DNA of 32,000 nucleotides from Microcystis aeruginosa NIES-843 (GTDB lineage Bacteria; Cyanobacteriota; Cyanobacteriia; Cyanobacteriales; Microcystaceae), in NCBI RefSeq assembly GCF_000010625.1, contig NC_010296.1, positions 5,040,001-5,072,000 of the forward strand, given 5' to 3'. A model generated the notes under the pieces. It was not told the origin of the DNA. It saw nothing but the letters and a program-made list of their open reading frames with translations, and did not search any database. Positions 1-29,313 of this stretch are shown here, in pieces (within the stretch, counting starts at the first letter, position 1; each line of letters starts with the position of its first letter). A program made the position numbers and the translations under genes.

Positions 1-919
1 CACAAGAATTAAAAATAGCCAGCGTTAAACCCTTCTCGAGCGCGGTTTTCAGTGCCTCTTCTAACTGTGATATCGTCAAACTATTGTGGGTTGAATTCTC
101 ATTAATATATATTCGACCCGTTTGTCCCTGGGTTTGACTGTGACCGGCAAAAAACAGGATATCCCACCCTTCAGGCTGCCATAATTGAGTATTGAACTCC
201 TGGCGTGAGGGGTTGGCCAGGAACTTAACTGACCCATCCTGCAACCGCTGAAGTAAGCGGGTTTCTGTGGCTAAATCAATGCCAGAGCTATTGCCTAAGA
301 CTGCTAAAATCCTGACTTTCTGGTCAGTTTTTGCTGACTTCAGAACATTTCGATAGTGGTACTCTGGTTGACTCAACGCCATTTCCGCTTGGGGATAATC
401 CTCAAAGAAATGCCAGCGATGCCAGGGAAGAGAGCGCAATTCCAGATCGTTAGTTTCAATCATGACTCGGATGGGAGCGGATGAGTCGAGTCGCGATCGC
501 AGTTGCAGTTCAATGGGGAGAAAACCCTCTGATTTCAGCCAAGTATTGATGCTTGCCTGTAGCTGCTGGCACAACTCATCAAAACTGACCTGAGAAATAT
601 TGGTAATGCCTGCTTCACTGATTTCTAGTTCACCAACTTCTACGAGAGAAGCTGAAGATAGATGTCCTGGTTGGGATATTATGGGATGGCGTTGTCCGCC
701 CGTAATGCGTTCAGTTTCGCTGCGCCCAAGGCGATCGCATAGTCCCCGATAAACAAGCTGCCAATTCCGATACAGTTCCCCTAAAGCGGGTGCGGCGGGC
801 AACGTGCCGATAAATTGCTCTGGCCTCGGATTGCCGTCCGTCCATAATTGAACGGTAACTCGCGGAAATCCCTGATACAAATTCCCACTGCCTAGATTAA
901 TAATCACTGACTTGTTCAT
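1..919 (-). CDS. CHAT-domain (caspase-fold) protease, N-terminal ~306 aa; the 3' part runs off the window start
   Basis: Absent from the ORF track because it is open-ended. Manual minus-strand translation from ATG at 919-917 gives MNKSVIINLGSGNLYQGFPRVTVQLW...IRVMIETNDLELRSLPWHRWHFF...GWDILFFAGHSQTQG...GLTLAIFNSC with no stop down to position 1. The LPW(E/H) motif, His in FFAGHS and Cys in IFNSC match the CHAT/caspase catalytic dyad pattern. Confidence 0.75.
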   Translation of the reverse strand, partial: MNKSVIINLGSGNLYQGFPRVTVQLWTDGNPRPEQFIGTLPAAPALGELYRNWQLVYRGLCDRLGRSETERITGGQRHPIISQPGHLSSASLVEVGELEISEAGITNISQVSFDELCQQLQASINTWLKSEGFLPIELQLRSRLDSSAPIRVMIETNDLELRSLPWHRWHFFEDYPQAEMALSQPEYHYRNVLKSAKTDQKVRILAVLGNSSGIDLATETRLLQRLQDGSVKFLANPSRQEFNTQLWQPEGWDILFFAGHSQTQGQTGRIYINENSTHNSLTISQLEEALKTALEKGLTLAIFNSC

Positions 920-1152: not shown

Positions 1153-1391
1153 ATAGATGTCAGCCCTTTCATCTTAATACAGGAAAACGGAAGAAAACTG
1201 GAGAATGCTTTAAATTTGGGAAGGGGGGGATGCGATACGCCCTGACAGCAAGGCTTTTCAGCTATCAGGAGAGTAAAGCTTTTCTCAAAATGTATCAGTG
1301 CGATACATCTTGTCCACAAAACCCAAGAGAGCCATCCAGAATTTAGAACCGTAAGTGTATAGGTTGATTTTGCTCACAACTACTAACGAGT
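1153..1391 (+). promoter_or_regulatory. Copy A of a duplicated bipartite intergenic element (module 1 at 1153-1201, module 2 at 1338-1391)
   Basis: About 80-85% identical by eye to 7509-7556 and 7636-7688, in the same order and orientation. It lies between the divergent CHAT (-) and GH104 (+) genes. Module 2 contains GTGTATAGGT and CAACTACTAACG blocks. On the minus strand module 1 reads CCTGTAT(T)AAG, which is -10-like. The repeat itself is solid; its function is inferred. Confidence 0.6.
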
Positions 1392-1520
1392 GTAACGGTT
1401 CGCAGTCGTATGAGGTACATTATCACGGACTACAAACCAGTCTAAGCAAGGCTTTGCCTGTATCTCACTCAATTGCGTATCGCTATAACTGAATCGAGAT
1501 CTAACAAAAGGAGAAATTAC

Positions 1521-2231
1521 ATGGCAGAATTAAGTTTGACCGCCCTTCAAGATACCGTGATCAAGCGATTTACTATCGATAGCACGGATATTGACAATCC
1601 AGGAGAAAAGTTTGATTTAGAAAAAGGCGAAAAAATTGGTATCAACTGGTATCGACCAGCTTCCAAGAATCATTGGGAATTTGAACTCAAATCTCCCCAC
1701 GGAGGCTTTTTCAATTGGTACGTTTTCCAGCCGCACGTTCAGATTAACGATCCCACGCCTGGACATACTGAAGCTTCAGGAAGCAAACAAGTCATGGCTT
1801 TCTTAGATGCCATTGCTTGGCCAGAAGGGACAGATAAGAGCGTTGGAGATGGTGTAAGGACAGGATACAATATCATGTTCACTGGCCAGACATTTTCTAG
1901 TTATGCGGATCATCCCCGTAAGGTTATATGTTCAGGAGGATTATGCTCGACAGCAGCAGGGCGATATCAATTTCTGAACACAACTTGGGATGGAGTTGCC
2001 AAAAAACTAGGCTTGAAAGATTTTTCTCCTAGTAATCAAGACAAAGCCGCCATTCAACTCATTAAACAACGAGGTGCATTAGACGAAATAGAAAAAGGTA
2101 AAATCAGGGCAGCCTGTGACATCCTAAGCTGGGAGTGGGCTTCTTTACCACCAGGTCGTTATGGTCAGCCCACAGTTACCTACGAGAAAATGGAGCAACT
2201 GTTTAAACAGGCGGGGGGAGTACTAGGGTAG
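1521..2231 (+). CDS. GH104 lytic transglycosylase (phage lambda R endolysin-like) with a ~95-aa N-terminal domain of unknown function
   Basis: The C-terminal 150 aa align residue by residue with lambda R as I recall it: AFLDAIAWPEGTD, YADHPRK, STAAGRYQFL, LGLKDFSPSNQD, IKQRGAL, WASLPPGRYGQ, FKQAGG. The catalytic Glu is retained in AWPEGT. I prefer ATG at 1521 (AAGGAG at 1508-1513) over the track's TTG at 1473. No signal peptide is visible. Confidence 0.9.
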   Translation: MAELSLTALQDTVIKRFTIDSTDIDNPGEKFDLEKGEKIGINWYRPASKNHWEFELKSPHGGFFNWYVFQPHVQINDPTPGHTEASGSKQVMAFLDAIAWPEGTDKSVGDGVRTGYNIMFTGQTFSSYADHPRKVICSGGLCSTAAGRYQFLNTTWDGVAKKLGLKDFSPSNQDKAAIQLIKQRGALDEIEKGKIRAACDILSWEWASLPPGRYGQPTVTYEKMEQLFKQAGGVLG

Positions 2232-3248: not shown

Positions 3249-3602
3249 TTGTTAAAATTGGGTCGTAGAGGAGATAACTTAACACCTCATCATGTACCAT
3301 CCAACGCTTACATGAAAGCTAAAATCAAAGATTACACAACTAATCAAGGAATAGCTATCATGATGGAACATTTATCCCCCGGAAAAGGAGGTCATCATCG
3401 TCACACCTTATCTTATGGTAAAAGTCCAGACTTAACCCTTTCCCCTCGACAAACCTTAGCGCAAGAAGTTTGGGATATTCGCTCTATTTATCTGCGTCAA
3501 AGATTATATGATACAGATATTAGAAAGCGTCTGCAAGAACTCATTAAACTTAATAAAACAACTTGGTTAACCTTTTTTGATAAAGGAGTTATAAACCCAT
3601 GA
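3249..3602 (+). CDS. Orphan polymorphic-toxin-like C-terminal module (HH-motif, possibly HNH/EndoVII-fold); probably a displaced toxin tip without its own ATG
   Basis: The frame is open from 3186 (GDHITQSKLLTGEGKVGTYGDLLKLGRRGDNLTPHHVPSN...) with no ATG; only TTG at 3249 is available. It has PHHVPS and GGHHRHT His clusters. The segment is AT-rich, and there is a 4-nt ATGA overlap with the next ORF. Family assignment is uncertain. Confidence 0.4.
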   Translation: MLKLGRRGDNLTPHHVPSNAYMKAKIKDYTTNQGIAIMMEHLSPGKGGHHRHTLSYGKSPDLTLSPRQTLAQEVWDIRSIYLRQRLYDTDIRKRLQELIKLNKTTWLTFFDKGVINP

Positions 3603-4027
3603 ATTTACTAAAAATCTTACAAGAAAATCGTTTACTGAAAACACCTCAAGAAATCAAGTTATTTGAGGAAACTTTAGAAAAAATTGCTAAATATCCTAAG
3701 GATGACAATCTAAAGGAATTACATCTTATCTTAGATGATAATTGTGAACATCCTGAAATTATGTTTAGTTTAGTTCATTTTTTAGAAGATTTTGATCTAC
3801 AAAAACAAATACCAGCTTTTATTGAAGTGATTCCTCAATTAATGATCGCTGCACCAGAATGGACAAAAATCATTCACTATCGCATCATGAATGATGAATC
3901 TGCTTGTAAACTTTATCACAATACTCTGGAATTAGCCAATCAAAAGACCCCTCATTTCTTATATCAACTTTTACTAGAAAGTGTTAAAAATCATCTCAAT
4001 TCACCTTCGTACCAAATACGCTTTTAA
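3599..4027 (+). CDS. Putative cognate immunity protein (small, acidic, helical)
   Basis: Its start overlaps the upstream stop (ATGA at 3599-3602). It is 142 aa with no signal peptide or TM segment and shares the AT-rich composition of its partner. This architecture is typical of toxin/immunity cassettes. I do not recognise a family with confidence. Confidence 0.4.
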   Translation: MNLLKILQENRLLKTPQEIKLFEETLEKIAKYPKDDNLKELHLILDDNCEHPEIMFSLVHFLEDFDLQKQIPAFIEVIPQLMIAAPEWTKIIHYRIMNDESACKLYHNTLELANQKTPHFLYQLLLESVKNHLNSPSYQIRF

Positions 4028-4113: not shown

Positions 4114-4545
4114 TCATTGGGGTACCTGTACTTTATAAGCAATCTCAGAACCCAGCCTTGTAAAATGCTTTGGGTTGAGGGTTAACAGAACATCAGCCTG
4201 AGATTTGAGGACTGCTTGGGCGATAAGGGCATCAAAGATACCACCGCCAGGAAGCTGACGTTGCACCATTAGGTCAATAGCTGCCGTGTAATCTTCAGCA
4301 GTCAGCGAAACAGTATCGAAGGTCTGTAGGTTATCGCGGATCAAGTTTTGGGCGACGGCAGGGGAGATTTTGGTTTTGGGAATGCGCGTTAGAACAGAAT
4401 AGAGTTCTGCTAGGGTATGCGTGGCAATAAGTCCCTGAATTTGCTGGGATTGGGCTTGAAGGAGAAAGGGCAAGCAGGCCGAATGATGAGTGTGTCCAGT
4501 CAATAGGGCAGCGATGAGAGCAGAGGTATCAAAGAGACATTTCAT
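4114..4545 (-). CDS. vapC: PIN-domain ribonuclease toxin, VapC family
   Basis: MKCLFDTSALIAAL (N-terminal Asp), TLAELYSVL (Glu), GIFDALIAQA (Asp) and LTLNPKHF match the PIN acidic signature. It overlaps the upstream antitoxin gene by 4 nt. Confidence 0.85.
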   Translation of the reverse strand: MKCLFDTSALIAALLTGHTHHSACLPFLLQAQSQQIQGLIATHTLAELYSVLTRIPKTKISPAVAQNLIRDNLQTFDTVSLTAEDYTAAIDLMVQRQLPGGGIFDALIAQAVLKSQADVLLTLNPKHFTRLGSEIAYKVQVPQ

Positions 4546-4799
4546 GCAGGCAATTGGCTTTGAATGCGTTCCTCGCGGAGGTCATCAATAAGGGTATCGA
4601 GATGGCCGAGGGGTGGGGTTTCTAGCACTAAGGCACTGCCTTGACGTTGGACTTTAGCTTCTTGCTCCAAGGGTTGTAGGATGATGCAGCCTTGTCTAAC
4701 CTCAAGATTGAGGGATTGGGCTGTGGTGATGCCGAGTTGTTGACGGATTTCTAGAGGAATTTCTAGTTTTCCGCTGTCATCGATCGCAATTGCCGTCAT
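4542..4799 (-). CDS. vapB: AbrB/SpoVT/MazE-fold antitoxin, VapB type
   Basis: GKLEIPLEIRQQLGITTAQSLNLEVRQGCIILQP is a swapped-hairpin AbrB-like motif. The protein is 85 aa and sits immediately upstream of, and overlapping, the PIN gene. Confidence 0.8.
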   Translation of the reverse strand: MTAIAIDDSGKLEIPLEIRQQLGITTAQSLNLEVRQGCIILQPLEQEAKVQRQGSALVLETPPLGHLDTLIDDLREERIQSQLPA

Positions 4800-4910: not shown

Positions 4911-5987
4911 CTAGAGTTCAAAATTCTCGCAGAGGCAGGTGTCACCGAGACTAACCACAATACTAAAGGGGATACCAGAGCGCCCTTTAAAAGATTTAAG
5001 CTGAATATAGTTATCTTGCGTTCTGGAGCCCACTTCTTGAAGCTTTTTGCCTGCCTGAGAAAGCAACGTTAAGGCGATCTGGGGTGGCAGATATCGCTCC
5101 TCACCCGCCGGATGTAACTGAACCAGCACAGATAGCTGATTATCGGCTTCTTCTGTAACATTCACCAACAAGACCACTCTCTGTCCTTGCAACTCCATCC
5201 CCAAGTCAATAAGCTTCCCGCGTTTTGCACCCTCTCTCTGATTCCGAGGACTCCAAGCAAGATGAACTTCTGGACTAAACAGATCGTCGATCGCTTGCCA
5301 TCCTGCTGCAAAGACCCCCTGTATCCACTGTCCTAACTGGATAGGAGTTTCTTGAGAAGCCGTTAATGTGGTTTCAGAGATTGCTTCAGGCGTTGCGGTA
5401 TGCTCCGTTGAAATGACGGGCAATAGTATTGAGGCAGGTTCTAGAAAATCACAGTAGAACAATAAATGATTGGGTTCAGGATCGAAAACAGATAGGGGAA
5501 TTTGATAATAATCGTTTTGTAAACCATCACTGACCCGATGGCAATAATTCATGAGTCGGTCAGATCGCAAAAAGCCTCGAATCATCACTCGCTGCTGCTC
5601 TTCACAGACCTCAAGCAGGACATAGAAATGAGCGACAAGAGCCGGCTGTTCGATCGCTTCTCTGGGAATTTCCACTACTTCATCTAGAACCTGCTCTTTG
5701 ACAATTAAATTTAGCTTAAATTCATCAATTTTAAGGTTGTAAACAGCACCAATATGATTGATACATTGAGTTCGATCGAGGCAGTGTGATGGAGCGCGTT
5801 TCTCTAGCCATTGCTCAAAACCCAATAGTGCCAGGGCATTCAGATAGAGTTGCCACTGACCCGCTTCATCGACTGAGGGACTGGCCAGGGGATTGACTAG
5901 CGCCTGCTCAAACTGTTCTGGTTCAAGCCTTATGGCTTCAGGTCGGCTAAGATTTAAATCTGGTGGGATCGCTCTTAAGCTAAACAT
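4911..5987 (-). CDS. DUF1822-family protein (cyanobacteria-restricted, function unknown)
   Basis: WQLYLNALALLGFEQWLEKR and the overall ~360-aa layout match my recollection of DUF1822. The likely start is ATG at 5987-5985, forming a TAATG overlap with the stop of the upstream sigma-like gene. The track's longer ORF to 6035 starts inside that gene. Confidence 0.65.
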   Translation of the reverse strand: MFSLRAIPPDLNLSRPEAIRLEPEQFEQALVNPLASPSVDEAGQWQLYLNALALLGFEQWLEKRAPSHCLDRTQCINHIGAVYNLKIDEFKLNLIVKEQVLDEVVEIPREAIEQPALVAHFYVLLEVCEEQQRVMIRGFLRSDRLMNYCHRVSDGLQNDYYQIPLSVFDPEPNHLLFYCDFLEPASILLPVISTEHTATPEAISETTLTASQETPIQLGQWIQGVFAAGWQAIDDLFSPEVHLAWSPRNQREGAKRGKLIDLGMELQGQRVVLLVNVTEEADNQLSVLVQLHPAGEERYLPPQIALTLLSQAGKKLQEVGSRTQDNYIQLKSFKGRSGIPFSIVVSLGDTCLCENFEL

Positions 5988-7459
5988 TACGAAACTCCTT
6001 GTGTAACCTTTGTACACTCTTCTAAGTAAAAGCAAAGCTGTTGAGCATATACACTTTTCATCAGACGATTCTTTCCCGCTTGAATTTCTTCAAACGCTTC
6101 CTGAAATATTTCTGCATCTGCCAGCGCCTCGATTTGCTTGGCTAAATTTTCTAAATAATCGGGTTGAGGAGGAAGAGCAGTCAGTCCTTTCTCTTCAGCT
6201 TTCTTCAGCATTTGGTCAAGCACTTGTCGAATTGTCAATGTCCGAACAGTGTTAATTAACTCTCCCGGATTCAACACCCGTCTTGCTTGCGCCCAACCAG
6301 ACATTTTTAATAAATCAGCAATCTCTTTCAGTGCGATGCCCTGAGAATAATAGAGGTGTAATCCTGGAATAAATCGATCGGCGAAAGCGGCATACCCTTT
6401 GCTTTTTTTTAAATAAGTAATGCGATCGCTAATTGCCTGCTTAATGGAATGAACTAAGGCAAGTTGAAGCTGTTTGTGGAAGAATTCCAACATTTCTTGT
6501 TGCTCTTGCTGCTCCACATTATATTCACTGGCAATATCCTGCGGCAGCTCTGAGCGAATCAGGCGATCGCCTGTCTCTGGATCTTCAACTTCTAACGGTT
6601 CTCGATGGCTCCAAAGGTCAAATTGTCTAAGTTGTAGTGCCACTCTTCGCAGTTCTGTGATCAATTGGTTGGGCTGAATTGTGATATTTCGTGCTTTTAA
6701 ATAAGTCACCATCTCTTGAAGTTGCCCGGTTGTGGGATCTAGACAGCGTTTCGTACCCTGGTGTTGCTGATGCCTGTCTCGACGATAGACAGCGTGGAAG
6801 GCGGCAATTAAGTGGCGATCGCGTTCTGCCAGTTGTTGCAATTGTTTCGAGCGAGTGCGATTGAGTAGAGCCCAGTCGCTCAATTGTTTGAAGCCAAACT
6901 CGGATAAAAAATTCTTTAATTCTGGATTTTGTTTGGTTTGTAAATAAGTCCAGTTATCTAAGCTCATACTGGATTGAGCGTTGGGCTTAAAGGTTCGCAG
7001 AATTTGCAGTGAGAAACATTGATAAGCCGTTGTTTGAGGCTTGCCAGTGGGGTCTAAGGTGAGATAGGTTTTGCCATCTGAGTCTAAAACCATCAGCGTT
7101 TTCCCGTCGTCATTGAGGACAAACGGCAGCAAATCTCGGTAAGTAAAGGAGCGATCGTCTCCGAACAAATGATCGATTTTGCGGCAGGCGTTGAGAATCG
7201 GCTCAGAAACGTAACACCGCAGGCATAGTCCTGCGTGCGCTCTTTCTGTGGTATCAACTGCTGGAGCTTGAAAGCGGGATAGCAAATCAGTCTGGAGATT
7301 TCTCTGTTGGGAGCGATCGCCCCTATCCTCCTCTGCCTCACTTAACCCTTGGCTTTGAAAAAAATCATTTGCCAACGGGAGGAAACAACGCTTGTATCCA
7401 GTGCGATCGCTGGCAGGGTCAATGCGCCAAAGGTTGCAGTATCTTGATGCAGCACTCAT
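5987..7459 (-). CDS. Atypical long (490 aa) sigma-70-family-like protein
   Basis: It has a C-terminal region-4-like HTH (GLHLYYSQGIALKEIADLLKMSGWAQARRVLNPGEL) and an N-terminal stretch that could be a degenerate region 2 (CLRCYVSEPILNACRKIDHLF...FTYRDLLPFVL). It is coupled to a DUF1822 gene, a pairing I recall from cyanobacterial annotations. This was not verified by profile search. Confidence 0.55.
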   Translation of the reverse strand: MSAASRYCNLWRIDPASDRTGYKRCFLPLANDFFQSQGLSEAEEDRGDRSQQRNLQTDLLSRFQAPAVDTTERAHAGLCLRCYVSEPILNACRKIDHLFGDDRSFTYRDLLPFVLNDDGKTLMVLDSDGKTYLTLDPTGKPQTTAYQCFSLQILRTFKPNAQSSMSLDNWTYLQTKQNPELKNFLSEFGFKQLSDWALLNRTRSKQLQQLAERDRHLIAAFHAVYRRDRHQQHQGTKRCLDPTTGQLQEMVTYLKARNITIQPNQLITELRRVALQLRQFDLWSHREPLEVEDPETGDRLIRSELPQDIASEYNVEQQEQQEMLEFFHKQLQLALVHSIKQAISDRITYLKKSKGYAAFADRFIPGLHLYYSQGIALKEIADLLKMSGWAQARRVLNPGELINTVRTLTIRQVLDQMLKKAEEKGLTALPPQPDYLENLAKQIEALADAEIFQEAFEEIQAGKNRLMKSVYAQQLCFYLEECTKVTQGVS

Positions 7460-7508: not shown

Positions 7509-7688
7509 ATAGATGTCAGCCATTTTAGCTTATACAGGAAATCGGAAAAAAACCGGGGAGATTTAGATTTAGACAAGATGGCTCAGTTCCAGATTTTCCA
7601 GAACTGATCATCCCTTGCCAGACCTAAGAATTTCTAGAATTTAACCTTCAAGTGTATAGGTCGGTTTAGCTAACAACTACTAACGGGT
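7509..7688 (+). promoter_or_regulatory. Copy B of the duplicated bipartite intergenic element (module 1 at 7509-7556, module 2 at 7636-7688)
   Basis: See copy A. It lies between the divergent sigma-like/DUF1822 operon (-, ATG at 7459) and the secretin-like gene (+, ATG at 7749). Confidence 0.6.
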
Positions 7689-7748: not shown

Positions 7749-9881
7749 ATGTTCACTATTTCTAAGCAATCCATGTCATTCCCGCGTAGAAAGTTATCTC
7801 GTCAGCTTGCTCTGGGTCTAAGCCTCAGTATGATTGTAAGCTTTGGGGGGGAAGTATCTGCTCAAACCGCAGATATTAATATTAGAGTTAGTGAGCCTCA
7901 AGGAGGAGGGGCGAAATGTGAAGATCTTGACTATACGCAACAAAAATCATTCAAGCAAGCATCTCAATCCGTGAAACTCTACTATATCCGTTCCGCATCT
8001 GATCTTAAAGGGATACTAGCTCAGATTGCATCTAAAAATCCTTGCATAAAAGGTACGGTCATTGAAGCTCAAGGTGATAACACTATTGTTTTATATGGCA
8101 ACGAGGAACAGAGAAAAGCATTGCAACGAGTCATTACAATTTTAGATCTGCCCCGTGAGAGTGTCAATCTGGAAATGTGGGGAATACTCATATCCAGCAG
8201 CAACCCTGGTAAACTGGCTGAAGTCATGCGCCAAGTCAACAAAGAAATTGATACGACTCAACAATTACTGCAATATACTTATCAAAAGTTTGAAGAGTTT
8301 GCAAAAGATGTCGATATCGATATCGATGCGGATGATGACAATTCTAAAATGAGCTATAGCTCATTATTGCAACAAACTCTTGGATATCGGACAGCATTAG
8401 ATAAAGATCGTTCCCTATCTATGATGGATATCTTACTACGCATCAACGCGGCGAAAGATCCCTATTGTAATAATAAGGCTGCCGCCAAAAAACTTGATAT
8501 ACTTTTTCAAGAAGAGCGTTATAAACCCTATATAGAAGCTTTAAAAAAAGAACAGAAAATACCATTTGGAAACTACATACAATTGGGTTTACTACAAGAA
8601 AAAAGTTCAAACTTAAATCAAAATTGTGAAATTAAAAGTAAAGATCGAGAAAAAGTATTGCTCAAAAACTTGAATAGACGAAGAGCCGTGCTGGATTTTG
8701 CCCTACAGTACTCTAATCTAATGAACAATCCGGCGGGTTTTGATCCCGAAGCTTTGCAACAATCTGCCGAAACCCTGAACTCAGTTTTGCAGCCGATTGT
8801 TCATGCTATCAACCGTGACGTAGAAGAGTTATTCATTGAACCCACCTTAGCAAGAATCCAAAGCATCGTGAGGGATTATAAGAAGGTGTCCTATGCAGAA
8901 GTTGGTAAAACCAGCGTACAGGGTTTAAATGGAATTAAATCGACAGTCACCTCAACAACAGTCAGTGCCTTTGATGAGACTGGCCCTCTAAGGTTGGATG
9001 AATTGTTCAAAACAGCTAGTGAGATCAATAATTTTTCTAAAGAGTTAATCCCTGCTCCTGCTGGAGCCAATACCGTCCCTAGTGCACCAGTGTTAAGTCT
9101 GATTGCTGCCCTCAGCAAAGATACATCGGCATGGCGAGCAATAACATCAGGTGTTTCAATGGAAATTACTCCGTCAGTGTTACGCAACAGTGCATCTGCC
9201 GAACTAGATATTAATTTTACTACTGGACCGACAAAAGATAAAGAGCCTGTGCCAGATCAGTTCACTGGAACGACAAGACTGCGCCCCCTATCCCGCATTA
9301 AGCAGAATACAGTATCGACGAGGGTTTATGTTAATACTCTAGATATTTTTGCCCTTTCCACCTTCAACAGTCAAACCACCGAAGATGGAGGACGCACCTA
9401 TATCCCTGTTATCGGGACAATCTGGCAGGGAGTATTTAGCGGTGTCCCAATCATTGGTCAACTGTTCAGTTGGAAAAACTCTCCTCAAAGTGTCCAGCAC
9501 CAAAGCATCGTACTGACAAATTCTTTTATTGTCCCTACGGCGATGGGATTAGCTACTTTGTATCAACAACAACATCAACAACAACATCAACCGTCGTCAC
9601 TGTCGTCGCCGCCGCCGAAGCCGCCAAGAATGAAGGATGAGGAATATGAGGAATATAAGCAATCTTATGAGCAATATAAAGCTAAATTACTTTACTATGA
9701 TCACTGTTACGCAGTTGAACAGTATATAATTAACCGTGAGGGTGAAATTGAGGAAGAAGAATCTTCTGGAGAACAAAAACAAAATTATAATTTTAATCAA
9801 CCTCTCTCATTCTCATCATTAGATAAAAAAATCAAAGATGTCTGCGGAAAGCCACCACAACCACCAGACTTTTATCGTTAA
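7749..9881 (+). CDS. Divergent stand-alone secretin-like outer-membrane protein
   Basis: Signal peptide (LALGLSLSMIVSFGGEVSA/QT). Secretin_N-like module (VKLYYIRSASDLKGILAQI...GTVIEAQGDNTIVLYGNEEQRKALQRVITILDLPRESVNLEMWGILISS). Secretin C-domain-like end (SGVSMEITPSVL...STRVYVNTLDIFALS...IPVIGTIWQGVFSGVPIIGQLFSWKN...SIVLTNSFIVPT). The middle ~280 aa and the Q/H/P/E/Y-rich tail are not canonical. AGGAG lies 8 nt upstream of the ATG. Confidence 0.65.
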   Translation: MFTISKQSMSFPRRKLSRQLALGLSLSMIVSFGGEVSAQTADINIRVSEPQGGGAKCEDLDYTQQKSFKQASQSVKLYYIRSASDLKGILAQIASKNPCIKGTVIEAQGDNTIVLYGNEEQRKALQRVITILDLPRESVNLEMWGILISSSNPGKLAEVMRQVNKEIDTTQQLLQYTYQKFEEFAKDVDIDIDADDDNSKMSYSSLLQQTLGYRTALDKDRSLSMMDILLRINAAKDPYCNNKAAAKKLDILFQEERYKPYIEALKKEQKIPFGNYIQLGLLQEKSSNLNQNCEIKSKDREKVLLKNLNRRRAVLDFALQYSNLMNNPAGFDPEALQQSAETLNSVLQPIVHAINRDVEELFIEPTLARIQSIVRDYKKVSYAEVGKTSVQGLNGIKSTVTSTTVSAFDETGPLRLDELFKTASEINNFSKELIPAPAGANTVPSAPVLSLIAALSKDTSAWRAITSGVSMEITPSVLRNSASAELDINFTTGPTKDKEPVPDQFTGTTRLRPLSRIKQNTVSTRVYVNTLDIFALSTFNSQTTEDGGRTYIPVIGTIWQGVFSGVPIIGQLFSWKNSPQSVQHQSIVLTNSFIVPTAMGLATLYQQQHQQQHQPSSLSSPPPKPPRMKDEEYEEYKQSYEQYKAKLLYYDHCYAVEQYIINREGEIEEEESSGEQKQNYNFNQPLSFSSLDKKIKDVCGKPPQPPDFYR

Positions 9882-10107: not shown

Positions 10108-12279
10108 ATGAACACTACGAATTCAAAACAGAAACTAAACTACATTCCACAGATCATCATCGGCATCGGCATAATTGCGATCGCTGTAGTGGTTTGGTGG
10201 CACATTCCTGATTCTTTCTGGAAATATCTTTTTTTCTTGCGTGCACCTATTCTCTGGGGTTTACTGCTGGTGACACTCCCTCTAATAGCTACCTTATGGC
10301 TGCCAGCCATGCTGAGAAATTTATTTGTTCTTCGTGGTCCGTGGCAACTTATCTCTGTAATTGTCAGTGCAAACATGGCGGCAATAGGGGTCATTATTAA
10401 TGCCTATATGCTTCTCAAAGGTGCGCCAGATCGTTTTGGACTATCACCGTGGCTCGAAATTTCTGACATCTGGCAATATGGGTTGGCGATCGCTTTGAGT
10501 TTACCGATCTGCGTCACCTCTTATAAGCTTTCAAAAGAGGAAATTAAAGAAAAGAATCCCATCCAAGGAGTGATTTTCAGCGTGTTATTGAGTTTGGTGC
10601 TGTTGTTTGCAGTGATTCAGACGAAAACCTGGATATTTACTAACTTTGCTAACAATAAGTTACTCATTAGTTTCGTTGAATTCATTACCAGACATAAAAC
10701 TGAAGGCTATATTATAGGAACACAGCCAAAACCACAGCAATTCCTTGAAGGTCATCTGAGTAACATCGCTTTTTTTATAGTTGCCTTCATCGTCTATGGC
10801 ATCATTGGTTGGAAATTTCAGCCACAATCTCAACCATCCGACAAGAAAAAAGAAGCGGCTGCCCTAATGTATGTGATGCTAATCATCATGATGATAGCAC
10901 CCTTGTCTGGAAGCCTAACCTTCTATTTCGATTACTATCGCGTTCCTGTCTTTCTGCTCTTTGTGGTTATTGTTGCTTTGATGTATGCGCTGTTTAAGGT
11001 GGATCACTTTTTTGAATTAAACTTAAATGAGGCAAACAAATACGATCCCAAGGATTTCAAAAAGGCAATAGAAAAACGACTCGAGTATCAAGAAGAAGAA
11101 AAGGAAAAGACCTTAGTAGTTGTCTGTGCGAGTGGGGGCGGCATTCAAGCCGCAGGCTGGATAGTTCAAGTCCTGACGGGATTACAAGATATGCTAGGTA
11201 ATTCGTTTACCAAGTCAATTGGTTTTATTAGCTCTGTTTCAGGTGGTTCAGTTGGAACGATGTATTATCTCGATCGCTTTGCCGATAAAGGATATCCTGA
11301 GTCTAAGGAGTTTGAAAATATCTTTAAGAGTGCTACTGAAGATAGTTTGGATGCGGTAGGTTGGGGATTAGCTTATCCTGATTTATGGCGCATTATTGGG
11401 CTTCCTTTTTTCGCTCCTAAAATGTGCGATCGGGGAAAAGTAATAGAGACAGATTGGCAAGGAGAGTTAAAAAATCCCAATAGCAAACAATTTTTATCTA
11501 CTTGGAGCGAACAAATTTTAAATGGTAAAATTCCCATCCCTATTTTCAATGCGACTCTGGTTGAAGATGGTCGTCGATTTCTAATTTCACCGATGACTTT
11601 TTGTAAACCTAGTAGCAACAAATCAGTGGATTTTAACACCCTTTATGCGGGATATGACATTGATGTTGTCACAGCCGCAAGGCTCTCAGCAACTTTTTCT
11701 TATATATCGCCTATTTCTCGCTATGTTGGTGAAAATAAAAACCAGAAGGGGAAAGGGAAGGGGAATTATCATATTGCCGATGGTGGCTATTTCGATAATT
11801 CTGGTATGGTAACAATGGTGGAATGGCTCAATGAATGGCTAGACCCCCAGAAAGGACTTAACATTAAACGAGTTCTTTTGTTACAAATTAATGCTTTTCC
11901 TAAGACTGAACCCTCCAAAAATGAGAGTGGCGGTGGAGGTTGGTGGCAGGCGATAATAGGTCCTTTACTGACCTTATTCAGCGTCCGTGATACTACCCAG
12001 TTGTCTCGAGTTTCTACTGAAGTAGAACTTCTTCAACAGCGATGGAAAAATCAAGTAAAGATCGCATATTGTCCTATCTTTTTTCCAAAGAATGGTAAAA
12101 ATAGTGAAAATAAACCACCTCTGTCTTGGCAACTAACGGAAAAGCAAAAACAAAATATTAAAAACGGATGGTGCGGAATTAAGAAGGAAATTGGGGAGCA
12201 AATTGGGGAGCAAATTGGGGAGGAGTGGAAAAAATGGGGATTTGAAGACCCATCTCAAAAATCGACCAATGAGAAATAG
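10108..12279 (+). CDS. Patatin-like phospholipase fused to an N-terminal ~8-TM membrane domain
   Basis: About eight hydrophobic segments lie in aa 15-300. The patatin hallmarks follow: oxyanion-hole CASGGGIQAAG, nucleophile GxSxG in VSGGSVG, and catalytic Asp in IADGGYFDNSG. Confidence 0.8.
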   Translation: MNTTNSKQKLNYIPQIIIGIGIIAIAVVVWWHIPDSFWKYLFFLRAPILWGLLLVTLPLIATLWLPAMLRNLFVLRGPWQLISVIVSANMAAIGVIINAYMLLKGAPDRFGLSPWLEISDIWQYGLAIALSLPICVTSYKLSKEEIKEKNPIQGVIFSVLLSLVLLFAVIQTKTWIFTNFANNKLLISFVEFITRHKTEGYIIGTQPKPQQFLEGHLSNIAFFIVAFIVYGIIGWKFQPQSQPSDKKKEAAALMYVMLIIMMIAPLSGSLTFYFDYYRVPVFLLFVVIVALMYALFKVDHFFELNLNEANKYDPKDFKKAIEKRLEYQEEEKEKTLVVVCASGGGIQAAGWIVQVLTGLQDMLGNSFTKSIGFISSVSGGSVGTMYYLDRFADKGYPESKEFENIFKSATEDSLDAVGWGLAYPDLWRIIGLPFFAPKMCDRGKVIETDWQGELKNPNSKQFLSTWSEQILNGKIPIPIFNATLVEDGRRFLISPMTFCKPSSNKSVDFNTLYAGYDIDVVTAARLSATFSYISPISRYVGENKNQKGKGKGNYHIADGGYFDNSGMVTMVEWLNEWLDPQKGLNIKRVLLLQINAFPKTEPSKNESGGGGWWQAIIGPLLTLFSVRDTTQLSRVSTEVELLQQRWKNQVKIAYCPIFFPKNGKNSENKPPLSWQLTEKQKQNIKNGWCGIKKEIGEQIGEQIGEEWKKWGFEDPSQKSTNEK
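12190..12225 (+). repeat. 12-bp in-frame tandem repeat (ATTGGGGAGCAA x2 plus a diverged third unit) in the patatin gene 3' end
   Basis: Read directly from the sequence; it encodes IGEQIGEQIGEE. Confidence 0.9.
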
Positions 12280-13599: not shown

Positions 13600-14635
13600 C
13601 TAAATCCGTTGAGTATAGGCTAGTTATGAGGAGAGGCAAAAGGCAAGAGGCAAAAGGCAAAGGGGAAAATAAATAATCAGTTTTTCATAACCAGATTTAG
13701 TATAACTCATAGTTATAAACAGCCGCCAACAGGTTAATTCTTAAACTATATCTTCGACGACGATTCCGATATTTACAGGATAAGATTTTCAAGATTTTGA
13801 GTTTCCTATTTATAGGTTCAATGATAATCCTTTCTTTGGCTAAAGCCTTGTTATAAACCTTCTCTAACTCTGTTAATTTTCTATTTTTCGGTTTCTTTTT
13901 CGGTGTATAACTATTACTATGGTATGCAGCTATTCCCTAATAACCACTGTCTTCTCTGCTAGTAGTTAAAGGATGAAAACGAATTCGACTTTTTTTAAAT
14001 AAACTAAAATCATGACCTCTACCTTTCCCACAAAAGACACAGATAATTTCCCCGGTATTTTTATCAGCTACTAATTGGGATTTTCAAGTATGATAACCTC
14101 TTTTACCCCCAAAAAAATCTTTCTGTTTCTTTTGGGGGCGTTCCATGGGAGTTTCCGTTACATCCATTACCGTTACGACCGGTATCTCTGCTTGATTTAG
14201 TAGAGATTTTTTTCCTTTTAAACGGAAGTTTCCCGATTGTAAAAGCATTTTTTCCGTCTTATTTACAATCCGACCTATAGTTGATTCTGATATTTGACCG
14301 CTTGTACCAATGTGAAAAGATGTTCTATATTCTCGCCAATATTCTAACGTTACTAAAACTTGTTCTTCTATAGATAGTTTAGGTTTCGGTCCCCTTTTAG
14401 ATGCTGAATTAGATTCGGCTTCAACACTTTTTACTGATTCTACCATCTTTCTGTATGTTTGTTTATACACACCGAAACGGCGTTTGAATTGTTCATCTGA
14501 TAAGTTTTGATAATCCATATTTTTGCTAATAAACATAGCAAAAGTATAGATGATACTAAATCCCGTTATTAAAGACTGATTATCTATTCCTCCTTTTGCC
14601 TATCCTGATATGTAGCCTATACTCAACGGATTTAG
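13600..14635 (-). mobile_element. IS5-family (DDE_Tnp_4 / Harbinger-like) insertion sequence, 1036 bp, with long structured TIRs; inactivated
   Basis: The outer 23-bp ends CTAAATCCGTTGAGTATAGGCTA (13600-13622) and TAGCCTATACTCAACGGATTTAG (14613-14635) are perfect inverted repeats. Similarity continues inward through GGCAAAAGG tracts to ATACTAAATC(T/C)(G/C)G (13650-13705 vs 14553-14600). The element encloses the transposase pseudogene. Confidence 0.8.
13697..14536 (-). pseudogene. IS5-family transposase with two in-frame premature stops
   Basis: The track ORF 14084-14536 (…RGPKPKLSIEEQVLVTLEYWREYRTSFHIG…GGKRGYHT*) continues in the same frame after TGA at 14086-14084 as KSQLVADKNTGEIICVFCGKGRGHDFSLF…EDSGY*GIAAYH…NKALAKERIIIEPINRKLKILKILSCKYRNRRRRYSLRINLLAAVYNYELY*. 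The total is about 279 codons, ending at TAA 13699-13697. Confidence 0.8.
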
Positions 14636-15067: not shown

Positions 15068-16354
15068 ATGCTAGTCGTAGAAGCCAAGTTAAAAAACGGG
15101 ACACCAGAACAATACCAAAGACTAGATGAAGCAATTAGGACATCTCAGTTTGTGCGTAACTCTTGTGTTCGTTATTGGCGGTCCAATCAAGGGACAACCC
15201 GCAATGATCTCCAAAAACTTTGCTCGGTACTAGCTAACAATAAAGAGACACCTTGGGTTAATAAGCTTAACTCCCAAGCTCGTCAATCGGCTGCTGATAG
15301 AGCCTGGCAATCAATTAGTCGGTTTTACCAGAATTGTCATGCTAAGATACTTGGGAAAAAGGGTTTTCCTCGGTTCAAGAAGCATAGTCGTTCGGTTGAG
15401 TATAAACTAACAGGCTACCAACTATCTGAGGATCGACGTAAAATCAGATTTACTGAAGGTTTTAAAGCAGGAGAATTTGATTTATGGTGTAGTCAAAAGA
15501 CATTAGTTTATTATTCAGAGCAACAGATTAAACGGGTAAGAGTTGTTAGACGTGCTGATGGTTATTATTGTCAGTTTTTGATTGACGTAGAACGGCAAGA
15601 ATACCATAAACCGACGGGACAAATAACAGGAATTGACTTAGGGTTAAAGGAATTTTATACCGATGCCCAAGGCAATACTGTAGAGAATCCACGTTATTTA
15701 AGAAAGTCAGAAAAACGACTGAAAAAAGCACAAAGGAGATTATCAAAACAATTTCGCAAAGGAAAGAAACAGTCTAACAACTATCACAAGCAACGGATAA
15801 AAGTAGCTAGGCTTCATCTTAAAGTATCAAGACAACGTAAAGACAAAGCAATTAAAGACGCTTTGGCGTTAGTCCAGTCTAATGATCTGGTAGTCTATGA
15901 AGCTTTAAAGGTAAGAAACTTAGTCAAAAATCGTCAGCTGTCTAAGTCGATTAGTGATGCTTCTTGGTATCAATTCACTGAATGGTTTGAATTTTTTGCC
16001 AAGATTTATCGGATTGTTTGTGTTGCTGTTCCTCCTCATTTCACTAGCCAAGATTGTTCAGTTTGTGGGACGAGAGTTCAAAAATCATTAAGCACTAGAA
16101 CTCATCAATGTCCTAACTGTAAAACAATCTTAGATAGGGATCATAATGCAGCAATCAACATTCTTAAAAAAGGGTTAAAATATTTGGGAAATCATCTCAA
16201 CGGTACTGTTGGGCAAACAGAAACCGACCCAAACGCCTTGGGAGAGTCCGGCCTCTGGATTCTTAATGGAGACATTGAGAATCTAAGCTGTCTCGTTGAA
16301 CAAGGAATTTCCGATAGTGATAGGTCAAGAATCCCCCGTCACAGCGTAGCTTGA
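15068..16354 (+). CDS. tnpB: TnpB (IS200/IS605-family OrfB, RuvC-like RNA-guided nuclease); no tnpA partner nearby
   Basis: RuvC triad candidates are ITGIDLGLKE (Asp), LVVYEALKV (Glu) and LDRDHNAAINI (Asp). A zinc ribbon CSVCG...CPNC is present. The N-terminal QYQRLDEAIRTSQFVRNSCVRYW is typical of cyanobacterial TnpB. A TATAAT box lies at about 15042 upstream. Confidence 0.9.
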   Translation: MLVVEAKLKNGTPEQYQRLDEAIRTSQFVRNSCVRYWRSNQGTTRNDLQKLCSVLANNKETPWVNKLNSQARQSAADRAWQSISRFYQNCHAKILGKKGFPRFKKHSRSVEYKLTGYQLSEDRRKIRFTEGFKAGEFDLWCSQKTLVYYSEQQIKRVRVVRRADGYYCQFLIDVERQEYHKPTGQITGIDLGLKEFYTDAQGNTVENPRYLRKSEKRLKKAQRRLSKQFRKGKKQSNNYHKQRIKVARLHLKVSRQRKDKAIKDALALVQSNDLVVYEALKVRNLVKNRQLSKSISDASWYQFTEWFEFFAKIYRIVCVAVPPHFTSQDCSVCGTRVQKSLSTRTHQCPNCKTILDRDHNAAINILKKGLKYLGNHLNGTVGQTETDPNALGESGLWILNGDIENLSCLVEQGISDSDRSRIPRHSVA

Positions 16355-20666: not shown

Positions 20667-21356
20667 CTAACCGTTAGCAATCACCAGACTTTTAAGAACA
20701 TTTTCGGTCATGGCCGCTATTTGATCCAATTGTTCCTGATGGCGTTTTGCCTGTTTTTTGGCTTCTACCTTGCGTTTCAGGGCTTCCCGGGCTAAATCAT
20801 CGCGATTTCTGCTTAAAGCTTCGATCGCTACTCGATTCCATGTTTCTGCTTCTTGAATGGCTTTTTTATACTGGGGTTGAATTTCATCCCAACTGACCTT
20901 AAGATTGCTTAAAGCCCCTTTTAACAGGGTTTGGGCATTGTTGGGGTCGGCTCCGATGAGGGATTTTTTCAGAGGTTCGTAGAGTCCCACCGCTTGTAAA
21001 TGGGTAATAATCGGGATAAATTCTTCTATCTGTTGACTTTTGCTAATACCGGTTTTACACCAAGTGGCAAAATGTTCGCAGTTGTTAAAAAGAAGATTAT
21101 ATTTCTGTTCCCCCAGACGACTTAGCGCCCTTTCTACCACCACATCGGGGATAAAGGAAAATCCCACCTCTACATGGCGCACCACATAGATTTTACCGCC
21201 CCTAGCAAAGGTTTCTAGGGAAGTTCGTTCGACAATCTCGCTCGGTTTTCGGTAATGAATGACGCTACCATCACCGCAATCGATGCCATGATGGGCATAA
21301 ACACCCTGAAGATTGAGCAATTCCCGATAGGCGTATATTTGATCCCCTCTAGCCAT
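20667..21356 (-). CDS. LRAT/NlpC-P60-superfamily (NC domain) protein with a C-terminal PspA/IM30-like helical segment
   Basis: GDQIYAYR...YAHHGIDCGDGSVIHY (His box) and LLFNNCEHFATWCKTG (NCEHF catalytic Cys) are present. The C-terminal WNRVAIEALSRNRDDLAREALKRKVEAKKQAK resembles the PspA N-terminal helices. Confidence 0.75.
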   Translation of the reverse strand: MARGDQIYAYRELLNLQGVYAHHGIDCGDGSVIHYRKPSEIVERTSLETFARGGKIYVVRHVEVGFSFIPDVVVERALSRLGEQKYNLLFNNCEHFATWCKTGISKSQQIEEFIPIITHLQAVGLYEPLKKSLIGADPNNAQTLLKGALSNLKVSWDEIQPQYKKAIQEAETWNRVAIEALSRNRDDLAREALKRKVEAKKQAKRHQEQLDQIAAMTENVLKSLVIANG

Positions 21357-27897: not shown

Positions 27898-29313
27898 TTA
27901 AAGGTGTAAATATCTGGCAAAATATTCACGGTATAAGCGACAGCCTATCTCAACACCATCTTTTGTTCTTGATACTAATCCCAAGCTATACAACTCAAAA
28001 GTTTCTATTGGATTTAATACGACAGGTCGATTGCTTTCAATGACTTTTTTGAGACATTCCTTGAGACCATATTGACAAATGCTCCTATAAAGACGAGAGA
28101 GATACTCATGATAAATTCCTACCTCTGTTGCCGCCTCCGCTAAGATAGTCTCTAGTGTTTTTTCTTCTTTGCTTAGGGAGTACATAGCTTGGCGAATCAA
28201 ATAGGGATGTCCTCCAATCATTTCTTGCAAGGCTTCTAGTTGTGTCTCTGTCAATCTGAGACTATGTTTTTGAGATAAATTTAAAACTTCCCGATGATTA
28301 AACTCTCTCAACTCTTGTCCTTTACCTACGTTTGCTAGAGGAGATCCAGCCAAGCTCTTGATTACATAATCATCTGTAGAATAGGCTAAAATCAGCACTA
28401 ACTTTCGCCACAACTGATTGGTTACGCCTTTTTCATGCCATGCTCGTAATTTTTCCAAGAAATCTGTCAACGCTGGATCCTCACAAACACAGAGCAAATT
28501 ATCTAAGCCAAGAAATATTGGTTTATCAATTTTGCTAAGGATAAAATCTTCAAGAAACTCATCACAAGCGTCGGAAGCAAAAGACTCTTTATCCCATTGT
28601 GACCTGAGATTTTCACGAATATCAAGTCCGATTTGACGACCGATTTGCTTACATAGCCATGGATAAAAAACATCTGGAGTTAGGATCTCGCGGTCAGTAT
28701 TTAGGTCTAAATAGACGGCCTTGCCTTGACCATTTTTAACCATTGTATTGTTTAACAAGCCTTTTATTAACGATGTCTTCCCCATCCGACTCGGTGCTTT
28801 TAGGCGTAGCAAGATAGCTTGCTCTCCAGCATTATTTAAATAAGTATGACAATTTTGCTCAATAGGAGAACGTTCTTGATAGTAAAGTGAATCAGTGGCA
28901 ACAGTACCACTGGGCAGAGGAATATTTAATTCGTACTGCTCTAGTGTGTCCACAGTTACAAAATCAGGGATATACCTGACACAATTGTTAACAACCTGTC
29001 GTAAATCATCTGTTAAATTTCCCGTTGATTCAACGCCAAAAGTATTGCAAATTCCCCGTAAATGATGGGCTAGTAAGGATTGTTCCGTTAACTGGCCGGC
29101 TTCAAGCATCTCCAACCGTTCTCGTTGTCGTGGTTGCAAGTTTTCTCGATTTCTTTCAGTCAATACCTCACGATCAAGCCAAACCGTCTTATCTCCACGA
29201 ATTGACTGATATGACTTCCCCCGCAGGAGACGACGCAAAATTCGTTTTTGAATAGGCGTTAGTTGCTCATGATAAATATTGTCAAACGCTTCTGGTGTTA
29301 ATCGTAGTGGCAT
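27898..29313 (-). CDS. AAA_35/STAND-like NTPase paralog with an N-terminal LuxR/sigma-r4-like HTH (471 aa), no repeat domain
   Basis: Walker A is KAPSRMGKTSLIKGLL. The Walker B-like motif is PIFLGLDNLLCV (Asp-Asn instead of Asp-Glu). GGHPYLIRQ and LRAWHEKG align with GGQPFLTQ and IRAFHEKR of the neighbour. The N-terminus has LTPIQKRILRRLLRGKSYQSI ... LLAHHLRGICNTFGV, which is HTH-like with an insert. Confidence 0.75.
   Translation of the reverse strand: MPLRLTPEAFDNIYHEQLTPIQKRILRRLLRGKSYQSIRGDKTVWLDREVLTERNRENLQPRQRERLEMLEAGQLTEQSLLAHHLRGICNTFGVESTGNLTDDLRQVVNNCVRYIPDFVTVDTLEQYELNIPLPSGTVATDSLYYQERSPIEQNCHTYLNNAGEQAILLRLKAPSRMGKTSLIKGLLNNTMVKNGQGKAVYLDLNTDREILTPDVFYPWLCKQIGRQIGLDIRENLRSQWDKESFASDACDEFLEDFILSKIDKPIFLGLDNLLCVCEDPALTDFLEKLRAWHEKGVTNQLWRKLVLILAYSTDDYVIKSLAGSPLANVGKGQELREFNHREVLNLSQKHSLRLTETQLEALQEMIGGHPYLIRQAMYSLSKEEKTLETILAEAATEVGIYHEYLSRLYRSICQYGLKECLKKVIESNRPVVLNPIETFELYSLGLVSRTKDGVEIGCRLYREYFARYLHL

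Follow-up and report, generated by a model that had tools for sequence, protein, structure and literature searches.

A sigma-70-like protein, its coupled DUF1822 partner and a linked CHAT protease gene in Microcystis aeruginosa

In a stretch of 32,000 nucleotides (nt) from the chromosome of Microcystis aeruginosa NIES-843 (NC_010296.1, positions 5,040,001 to 5,072,000; hereafter the window, at its full length), a gene for a protein of 490 amino acids (aa) with features of a sigma-70 factor runs directly into a gene for a DUF1822 protein, and the 5' part of a gene for a caspase-like CHAT protease lies further along the same strand. We tentatively take the pair for the transcription arm of a three-component cyanobacterial signalling module, in which the protease would gate a sigma switch.

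The coupled gene pair and its neighbourhood

The following features define the locus:

5987..7459, (-) strand: gene for the 490-aa atypical sigma-70-like protein; ATG at 7459, TAA at 5989-5987
4911..5987, (-) strand: gene for the DUF1822 protein, 358 aa; ATG at 5987-5985, stop at 4913-4911
5985..6000, (-) strand: coupling junction; AAGGAG at 6000-5995, then 7 nt, TAATG at 5989-5985
1..919, (-) strand: 5' part of the EACC2-CHAT (caspase-like) protease gene; ATG at 919-917, product MNKSVIINLG..., running out of the left end of the window

At the junction the final A of the stop codon is also the initial A of the DUF1822 ATG, one base being common to both genes, and the AAGGAG 5' of this ATG is a Shine-Dalgarno sequence. 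The overlap had been pointed out in a preliminary description of this DNA, together with the claim that an open reading frame (ORF) call for DUF1822 reaches too far into the sigma-like gene, and both observations hold. The TTG-initiated version of 374 aa (4911..6035) is, judged by alignment, an over-extension of the 358-aa product read from the ATG, since in all 37 orthologues the alignment begins at the M of MF..., and the overlap itself recurs in other genomes.

The nearest relatives of both proteins are found in Microcystis and are 98-99% identical. One genome per species was scanned for relatives of the 490-aa protein, which yielded 192 assembly stretches, and 79 distinct loci, all of them cyanobacterial, were retained from the best 80 of these. 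In 77 of the 79 a DUF1822 gene comes next downstream in the same orientation, the remaining two being truncated at contig ends, so that the synteny extends to all 77 testable cyanobacterial loci. As far as gene order can tell, an adjacency beyond chance is thereby confirmed. In the 76 loci with an explicit stop and start location, the two genes overlap by -1 (TAATG or TGATG), -4 (ATGA) or -8 in 26 cases and are separated by at most 30 nt in another 25, and because of these 26 overlaps and 25 short gaps we regard tight coupling as a recurrent trait of the pair and not as a quirk of one genome. With the TAATG overlap, the Shine-Dalgarno sequence, the unbroken synteny and 51 of 76 loci overlapping or closely spaced, the pair has the adjacent and presumably co-transcribed partner gene of a sigma/anti-sigma pair. 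Neither the 490-aa protein nor DUF1822 contains a hydrophobic segment of membrane grade.

The 358-aa product matches Pfam DUF1822 (PF08852) with an E-value of 2e-64 and 218.2 bits (cutoff 25), the match spanning aa 20-357 and positions 2-370 of the 370 in the profile, and it is thus a full-length member of the family. Its AlphaFold2 (AF2) model, with a predicted local distance difference test (pLDDT) score of 70, consists of an alpha/beta N-domain (aa 17-185, pLDDT 80-92) and a beta-sandwich C-domain (aa 255-357), joined by the following segment:

5193..5414, (-) strand: low-confidence linker of DUF1822 (aa 192-265), variable in length; pLDDT <50 at aa 192-215 and 221-265

Among orthologues (alignment A3) this linker is variable and rich in insertions and deletions, and if the model is right it would be a candidate protease-accessible segment. 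Foldseek comparison with the PDB returned generic Ig-like beta-sandwiches and a weak likeness to PDIP38/POLDIP2 (E 8e-3). The model describes DUF1822 as a probably soluble two-domain partner; its alpha/beta and beta-sandwich architecture ruled out a reading as a TPR protein, and a PD-(D/E)xK-like reading of the N-domain, based on acidic and His motifs, was dropped as no match supported it.

The preliminary description was a two-gene account and had overlooked the CHAT protease gene at 919..1, the third component. In a tblastn comparison this gene is 58% identical to aa 1-285 of a CHAT-nSTAND-WD40 protein that follows DUF1822 in another locus (L082), and Pfam CHAT scores 24.4 bits on the truncated window product; in two Microcystis metagenome contigs (L098 and L099) the CHAT gene is more complete, and it can be aligned to the CHAT-nSTAND part of the L082 protein, which makes up the first ~600 aa. 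An EACC2-CHAT gene is present in the flanks of 38 of the 79 loci, and in 19 of the 34 with full flanks, and it stands immediately downstream on the same strand in 18. In Aphanocapsa (L003), where the sigma-like protein is 78% identical, the three genes follow one another without a break, and the CHAT part of the protein leads on to an nSTAND NTPase; in other relatives the CHAT proteases are fused to STAND/WD40 or CHASE2 sensor modules. In Microcystis ~4 kb lie between DUF1822 and CHAT, occupied by a lysozyme-like gene and the following cassettes:

4114-4799, (-) strand: VapB/MazE-like antitoxin (85 aa) and PIN toxin (143 aa) of a VapBC module
3249-4027, (+) strand: ORF of 117 aa, then an Imm30 immunity protein (E 7e-42)

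As the DUF1822 and CHAT genes are contiguous in Aphanocapsa, the VapBC and Imm30 genes look like insertions that have split the module.

The association of these genes has already been published, from comparative genomics only. Kaur et al. (eLife 2021, PMC8195603) described proteins with a constant EACC2 and caspase module and variable C-termini, reported computationally a neighbourhood of ECF (extracytoplasmic function) sigma, DUF1822 and EACC2-caspase genes, and proposed that caspase activation is coupled to the ECF sigma. The novelty that the preliminary description had claimed for the link between sigma factor and DUF1822 therefore falls away. All three families occur in the window, which is one more, split, member of this computationally described system, and no experimental work on the system was found in the literature searched.

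Sigma-like features of the 490-aa protein

The family of the 490-aa protein is 55-80% identical across cyanobacteria and carries no Pfam domain. Its profile (A1), compared with 1.84 billion representative proteins, gave 583 matches at E <=0.001; among the 150 listed, most were proteins of ~430-550 aa or fragments below that size, with no flood of ordinary sigma factors. The same profile found nothing among PDB sequences, and nine divergent members scanned singly returned one TIGR02937 match only (E 0.053). A more diverse alignment, A2, with 82 members of 27-57% identity, was more informative. Against PDB sequences it matched a DeoR/SorC helix-turn-helix (HTH) at E 2.7e-5 and SigF region 4 at E 0.027, and among its members Sigma70_r4/r4_2 was the most frequent Pfam match, with TIGR02937 (sigma70-ECF) in 24 of 82 (best E 6e-6), SigBFG in 15 and HTH_Cbp1 in 11. 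Aligned to E. coli RpoE with hhalign, region 4.2 alone was matched, weakly (E 0.039) and with the register kept over RpoE aa 144-182. The segments concerned are:

6260..6397, (-) strand: sigma region-4.2-type HTH (aa 355-400: ...LHLYYSQGIALKEIADLLKMSGWAQARRVLN...), from profile matches, the RpoE alignment and pLDDT >90
6860..7243, (-) strand: sigma region-2-like segment (aa 73-200), aligned with aa 65-~160 of NPUN_RS36720
7019-7111, (-) strand: ~30-aa beta-hairpin insertion (aa 117-147) that interrupts the region-2-like segment

The HTH is clearly region-4.2-like, and in this respect the protein has what is expected of a sigma-70 family member. The preliminary description had placed a region-4-type HTH near the C-terminus; the HTH is borne out and its position is not, since it lies at aa ~365-396 and ~90 conserved helical residues follow to the C-terminus.

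The region-2-like segment holds ILRTFKP...SLDNWTYL, which resembles sigma regions 2.1/2.2, and has no direct Pfam or NCBIfam match. Its assignment comes from a paralogue on the Nostoc punctiforme plasmid pNPUN03, where the gene for the 396-aa protein NPUN_RS36720, named 'sigma-70 family RNA polymerase sigma factor' by the Prokaryotic Genome Annotation Pipeline (PGAP), overlaps a DUF1822 gene and is followed, after this pair, by a CHAT-CHASE2 gene. NPUN_RS36720 reaches 98 bits with TIGR02937 (cutoff 42.9), its aa 74-360 covering profile positions 4-165 of 165 and thus regions 2 to 4, and it passes Pfam Sigma70_r4_2, with Sigma70_r2 below threshold (aa 87-144, E 0.012). Two more proteins of ~505 aa encoded upstream of DUF1822 likewise pass TIGR02937, at 48.8 and 45.6 bits. 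By hhalign, A2 matches NPUN_RS36720 at 97.3%; against A4, an alignment built from 32 relatives of that paralogue, the value is 98.5% (E 2.6e-15), and the 311 columns aligned correspond to aa 73-450 of the window protein. In this alignment aa ~95-190 (DLLPFVL…30-aa beta-hairpin insert…ILRTFKPNAQSSMSLDNWTYLQTKQ) stand opposite the region-2 segment of the paralogues, TIGR02937 positions 4-~70. With the caveats given below, the 490-aa protein is therefore supported as a probable sigma-70 superfamily member, divergent and enlarged, from a branch associated with DUF1822, because of the transitive profile homology, the region-4-type HTH matches and a box, described further on, that co-varies with the recognition helix.

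The direct comparisons weigh against this assignment and, with it, against a sigma switch. The protein has no Pfam sigma match and in NCBIfam only a FliA_WhiG fragment at E 0.08, so that the cutoff of no curated sigma model in either collection is reached; the family consensus has no NCBIfam sigma match; region 2 has no direct hhalign match to E. coli RpoE, and the support for it is transitive, passing solely through the intermediate paralogue clade; and a Foldseek search with the whole model gave no significant match, the top one being M. tuberculosis SigA at E 0.21. To this has to be added that two plasmid proteins encoded upstream of DUF1822 (L090 and L092) have no detectable relation to the family. 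The profile comparison was thus negative for direct sigma models and positive, by hhalign, for the TIGR02937-positive paralogues, and the earlier portrait of an oversized, atypical sigma-like protein with a poorly recognisable region 2 stands on this transitive evidence.

Microcystis and many filamentous cyanobacteria possess the module, frequently as several paralogues and also on plasmids, where paralogous triads occur, with further triads of DUF1822 and CHAT beyond pNPUN03. We identified 37 plasmid records with a DUF1822 gene, 19 of them with a relative of the 490-aa protein detectable by tblastn, and in the records compared the two genes are adjacent. Of the remaining plasmid genes six were inspected; upstream of them stood a TIGR02937-positive gene in three cases, a PGAP-named sigma factor in one and an unrelated hypothetical in two. 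The PGAP-named one, on Planktothrix plasmid p1 (L091, 2532-3176), encodes a 214-aa 'sigma-70 family RNA polymerase sigma factor' directly upstream of DUF1822; its sigma label was not confirmed, with no NCBIfam match at E <=0.01, and a 19-residue region-2.2-like stretch alone aligned to the family (E 0.044). For the L090, L091 and L092 proteins no link was found to either the 490-aa family or sigma models.

Note also that four cysteines (C79-x2-C82-x9-C92 in GLCLRCYVSxPILxAC, and C239) are invariant or nearly so across the family at 27-57% identity and absent from the TIGR02937-positive paralogue clade. They could form a metal or redox site, although three of the four lie on one long helix of the AF2 model. 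One family member of 951 aa (P0264) carries an N-terminal AAA_35 domain fused to the sigma-like module.

The AF2 model of the 490-aa protein has a mean pLDDT of 78 and is mostly helical, with a very confident C-terminal half and low-confidence loops at aa 233-236 and 281-313. Such loops and the extensions of the protein are missing in canonical ECF sigmas, and they would suit a scheme in which the CHAT protease processes the sigma-like protein itself, in a pro-sigma-like manner, cutting off the ~70 aa at the N-terminus or the C-terminal extension, or cutting out an inter-domain insert; DUF1822 would then be a presenting adaptor, for which its weak likeness to PDIP38, a ClpX-associated adaptor, could be cited. 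A disposable pro-peptide would hardly look like these extensions, however, which are highly conserved and for the most part confidently modelled, and the most disordered and variable segment of the pair is the DUF1822 linker. We regard this scheme as very unlikely.

A promoter-like box and its co-variation with the HTH

In front of the sigma-like gene we found a bipartite box, which is present in four copies in the window:

7509..7541, (-) strand: bipartite promoter-like box TTTCCTGTATAAGCTAAAATGGCTGACATCTAT, ~50 nt upstream of the sigma-like ATG
1153..1186, (-) strand: second box copy, its spacer 1 nt longer, ~230 nt upstream of the CHAT gene
7652..7680, (+) strand: variant box GTGTATAGGTCGGTTTAGCTAACAACTAC, facing the divergent secretin-like gene
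1355..1383, (+) strand: variant box GTGTATAGGTTGATTTTGCTCACAACTAC, facing the lysozyme-like gene 89 nt upstream of it; position weight matrix (PWM) score 16.4

When the two intergenic regions were compared, a stretch of ~55 nt in front of the sigma-like gene proved to recur in front of the CHAT gene. The Microcystis form of the box reads CCTGTATAAG...GCTGACATCTAT, the pattern TTTCCTGTAT-N-GCTGACATCTAT occurring exactly twice in the window where none is expected, and the opposite-strand variants read GTGTATAGGT.G.TTT.GCT.ACAACTAC. In the Microcystis metagenome contigs L097-L099 the box likewise precedes the CHAT gene, and a metagenome scan for further copies returned the same two promoter positions in Microcystis alone. 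Rfam has no match to the box or elsewhere in the window.

In most of the orthologous loci a corresponding box, AACTGCATAAG-N8-GCTGGCATCTAT, is found, usually 60-70 nt 5' of the sigma-like ATG, with the consensus aaCTGCATAAG.T.aAAa.gCTGgCATCTAT, in which CTGCAT and ATCTAT are 17 nt apart, a promoter-like geometry. The box is orientation-specific and keeps a fixed distance from start codons. A PWM that ignores the spacer gave 133 matches on both strands of 1.2 Mb, as against 1 in reversed sequences. Behind these matches stand the sigma-like gene (a BLAST cluster of 56, to which come loci where a short spurious ORF had been called first), DUF1822 in the 12 loci that do not have it next to the sigma-like gene, and CHAT genes lying apart in at least four cases (L026, L043, the window and Microcystis metagenome contigs); the remaining ORFs are varied and of secreted or envelope type, including CAP/SCP and LysM proteins, small membrane proteins and an alpha/beta hydrolase. 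In other loci, too, the opposite-strand variants (AAGTGCATAAGTTGATTTGGCTGGCATCTAT) adjoin the sigma-like gene.

In two loci (L062 and L076) the CHAT gene sits between the sigma-like gene and DUF1822, and DUF1822 has its own box ~83 nt upstream. Clusters of two to four extra opposite-strand copies were seen in L054 (8655-10270), L070 (767-4471), L025 and L040, preceding small membrane proteins, a DUF4278-like peptide (MQLIYRGHTY...), a CAP protein and a DUF900 alpha/beta hydrolase, and this arrangement suggests a local regulon.

The box varies together with the protein. In 56 loci residue 390, directly behind the invariant Trp in the predicted recognition helix, is Asp, and base 5 of the box is C in every one of the 56; in the six loci with Ala at this place, base 5 is T throughout. 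In a neighbour-joining tree the combination of Ala and T occupies two separate clades, one of Microcystis and Aphanocapsa and the other the Allocoleopsis/Symplocastrum pair, the latter nested among loci with Asp and C. Two apparently independent paired changes are modest evidence, and they point to a direct read-out of the box by the HTH of the 490-aa protein and hence to autoregulation. Neither the box nor its co-variation with the HTH was found in the literature searched, and both appear to be new.

In a rival reading the 490-aa protein would be a conventional HTH regulator that has retained a sigma-4-type DNA-binding domain, with the box as its operator or activator site and DUF1822 as a signal-sensing partner. 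The HTH is the only direct significant similarity of the protein, its best PDB sequence match is the DeoR/SorC repressor HTH, HTH_Cbp1 is matched by some family members, and no curated sigma model is passed. The box contains the inverted half-sites AACTGCAT...ATGCAACT and could be such an operator, and the spacing from its AAC to the downstream block is unlike that of classical ECF promoters; both points speak against a sigma factor. On the other hand, the similarity to the TIGR02937-positive paralogues is not confined to the HTH: ~310 columns align, the region-2 segment among them. The box has two blocks 17 nt apart, one orientation and a constant distance to the start codon, and no consensus sigma-70 promoter accompanies it on that strand of the window. 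On balance a conventional regulator seems to us unlikely.

A possible protease-gated switch and its relation to known systems

In the protease-gated sigma switch that we tentatively prefer, the 490-aa protein would be a factor whose sigma-2-like region carries an insertion and is followed by a long linker, the sigma-4.2-type HTH and a C-terminal helical extension of ~90 aa. This factor would bind RNA polymerase and read the AACTGCATAAG-N8-GCTGGCATCTAT box as a dedicated bipartite promoter. Within the window, the operon of the factor itself and the CHAT gene would be driven by the box; adjacent genes whose products are secreted or act on the envelope would probably be included. DUF1822, made in a fixed ratio from the overlapping or closely spaced gene, would bind the factor and hold it inactive until an activated, sensor-fused EACC2-CHAT protease cleaves DUF1822, probably in the disordered linker, and frees the factor. 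By analogy with the protease-controlled sigma systems discussed below, an anti-sigma or protease-substrate role of DUF1822 is plausible.

The points on the other side concern the partner and the protease. No anti-sigma fold (ASD/ZAS, RsbW-type kinase or similar) was detected in DUF1822 by Pfam or by Foldseek against the PDB, which gives no backing to the anti-sigma role that the preliminary description had considered for it, and Csx30 and CalpT are absent among its 50 best Foldseek PDB matches. A CHAT gene is not in the available flanks of about half the loci, and PADLOC has no match for any of the three proteins.

The missing anti-sigma fold leads to the question for the sign of the interaction. 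Instead of an inhibitor, DUF1822 might be a positive partner, a co-factor or second subunit that a factor with a weak region 2 needs for RNA polymerase binding or DNA opening, and the CHAT protease would then act elsewhere or switch the system off. Sigma factors of two subunits exist, as in SigO-RsoA of B. subtilis. The obligate synteny and frequent overlap imply a complex of fixed ratio without bearing on its sign, region 2 of the factor is degenerate, and a separated DUF1822 carries its own box and would thus be co-induced with the factor. Co-induction of sigma and anti-sigma is equally the norm for ECF pairs, however, the linked protease has well-studied precedents as a degrader of inhibitors, and DUF1822 has no recognisable DNA-binding or sigma-like segment. 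A positive role is in our judgement improbable, and inhibition of the factor by DUF1822 is the reading retained for the protease-gated switch.

What such a switch would control can be approached through the genes beside it:

7749..9881, (+) strand: divergent gene encoding 710 aa whose N-terminus resembles a signal peptide; weak similarity to Pfam Secretin (22.5 bits, under the cutoff)
1473..2231, (+) strand: 252-aa protein with a phage-lambda-type lysozyme (lytic transglycosylase) at aa 105-250; PDB 1am7 and 3d3d, E 1e-37
10108-12279, (+) strand: patatin-like gene

The secretin-like and lysozyme-like genes are only candidate members of the regulon. The secretin-like and patatin-like neighbours were rejected as fixed components of the system, since their presence is not conserved across other genera, and even in other Microcystis strains the secretin-like gene is absent or a remnant, in places replaced by a DUF7888 gene (L087, L088 and L099). 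One of these loci, L088, has a CAP-domain gene downstream, and CAP/SCP proteins follow the box in other genera as well (L054, L012 and L041).

A more far-reaching version, which we consider quite unlikely, would make the module a caspase-triggered suicide or lysis switch, in which a STAND-CHAT protein sensing invaders or stress destroys DUF1822 and the freed large sigma activates effectors that attack the envelope. In the window these effectors would be the lambda-type lysozyme, the secretin-like pore and the patatin-like phospholipase, and elsewhere the CAP, LysM and hydrolase proteins. If true, this would be a transcription-based pathway of programmed cell death or defence in bloom-forming cyanobacteria, and the candidate lytic regulon is relevant to the collapse of blooms and to programmed cell death in these organisms. 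For the protease-gated switch in general, the box turns a published neighbourhood observation into a testable regulon, predicting start sites, target genes and a contact between residue 390 and base 5. Should DUF1822 be a protease-cleaved anti-sigma factor, a function would be assigned to a Pfam domain of unknown function, and a CRISPR-independent, caspase-driven case would be added to the newly discovered protease-released sigma factors.

Further genes of the window were recorded in passing. An AAA_35 protein (27898-29313, (-) strand, E 3e-87) adjoins a 1385-aa WD40-repeat protein (23691-27848, (-) strand), and the two may be another STAND-type conflict system. Two mobile-element genes encode an HTH_Tnp_4 protein (14084-14536, (-) strand) and, at 15068-16354, (+) strand, an IS605 OrfB/TnpB-type protein that carries a Cas12f-like TNB domain. 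A 229-aa protein at 20667-21356, (-) strand, combines an LRAT/NlpC-P60-type domain (E 1e-25) with a PspA/IM30 segment in an unusual fusion.

Classical ECF operons such as E. coli rpoE-rseA likewise consist of a sigma gene and a tightly spaced partner gene. Such operons are as a rule autoregulated from a promoter of their own and controlled through regulated proteolysis. In the module described here the partner, DUF1822, is soluble, without a transmembrane segment or an ASD/ZAS fold; the 490-aa factor differs from classical ECF sigmas by its large insertions and C-terminal extension, and the box misfits their GGAAC-N16/17-CGT pattern.

With the system of Kaur et al. the window shares the three families, which in many relatives stand in the same order, and the idea of a sensor caspase coupled to transcription through a sigma factor; the published account consists of one computational sentence and a figure, without mechanism, promoter or experiment. 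The window differs in that its CHAT gene lies ~4 kb from DUF1822 with its own box copy, in the 490-aa size of its sigma, which fails the curated sigma models, and in a DUF1822 that models as an alpha/beta domain and a beta-sandwich, not as TPR.

In the Craspase of type III-E CRISPR systems (Cas7-11/Csx29/Csx30/CASP-sigma) Csx29, a TPR-CHAT protease, cuts Csx30, an inhibitor of the sigma factor (Strecker et al. 2022, PMC10028731). Again a CHAT-family protease is linked to a sigma factor, and a soluble sigma-binding inhibitor is cleaved to release a transcriptional response, a step that we infer here from gene linkage. Our module differs in having no CRISPR component, a STAND/WD40 or CHASE2 sensor fused to the protease, a DUF1822 without detectable similarity to Csx30 and a sigma of twice the usual size. 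The second case is CalpL, which cleaves the anti-sigma CalpT and so releases CalpS (bioRxiv 10.1101/2024.05.08.593097). The protease there is SAVED-Lon and the signal cyclic tetra-adenylate (cA4), as opposed to CHAT here, and no relation in sequence or fold was detected between DUF1822 and CalpT; the tripartite logic of protease, soluble anti-sigma and ECF-like sigma is nevertheless shared, with the freed CalpS binding RNA polymerase. Csx29/Csx30 and CalpL/CalpT/CalpS together give the protease-gated model of the window its experimental precedent.

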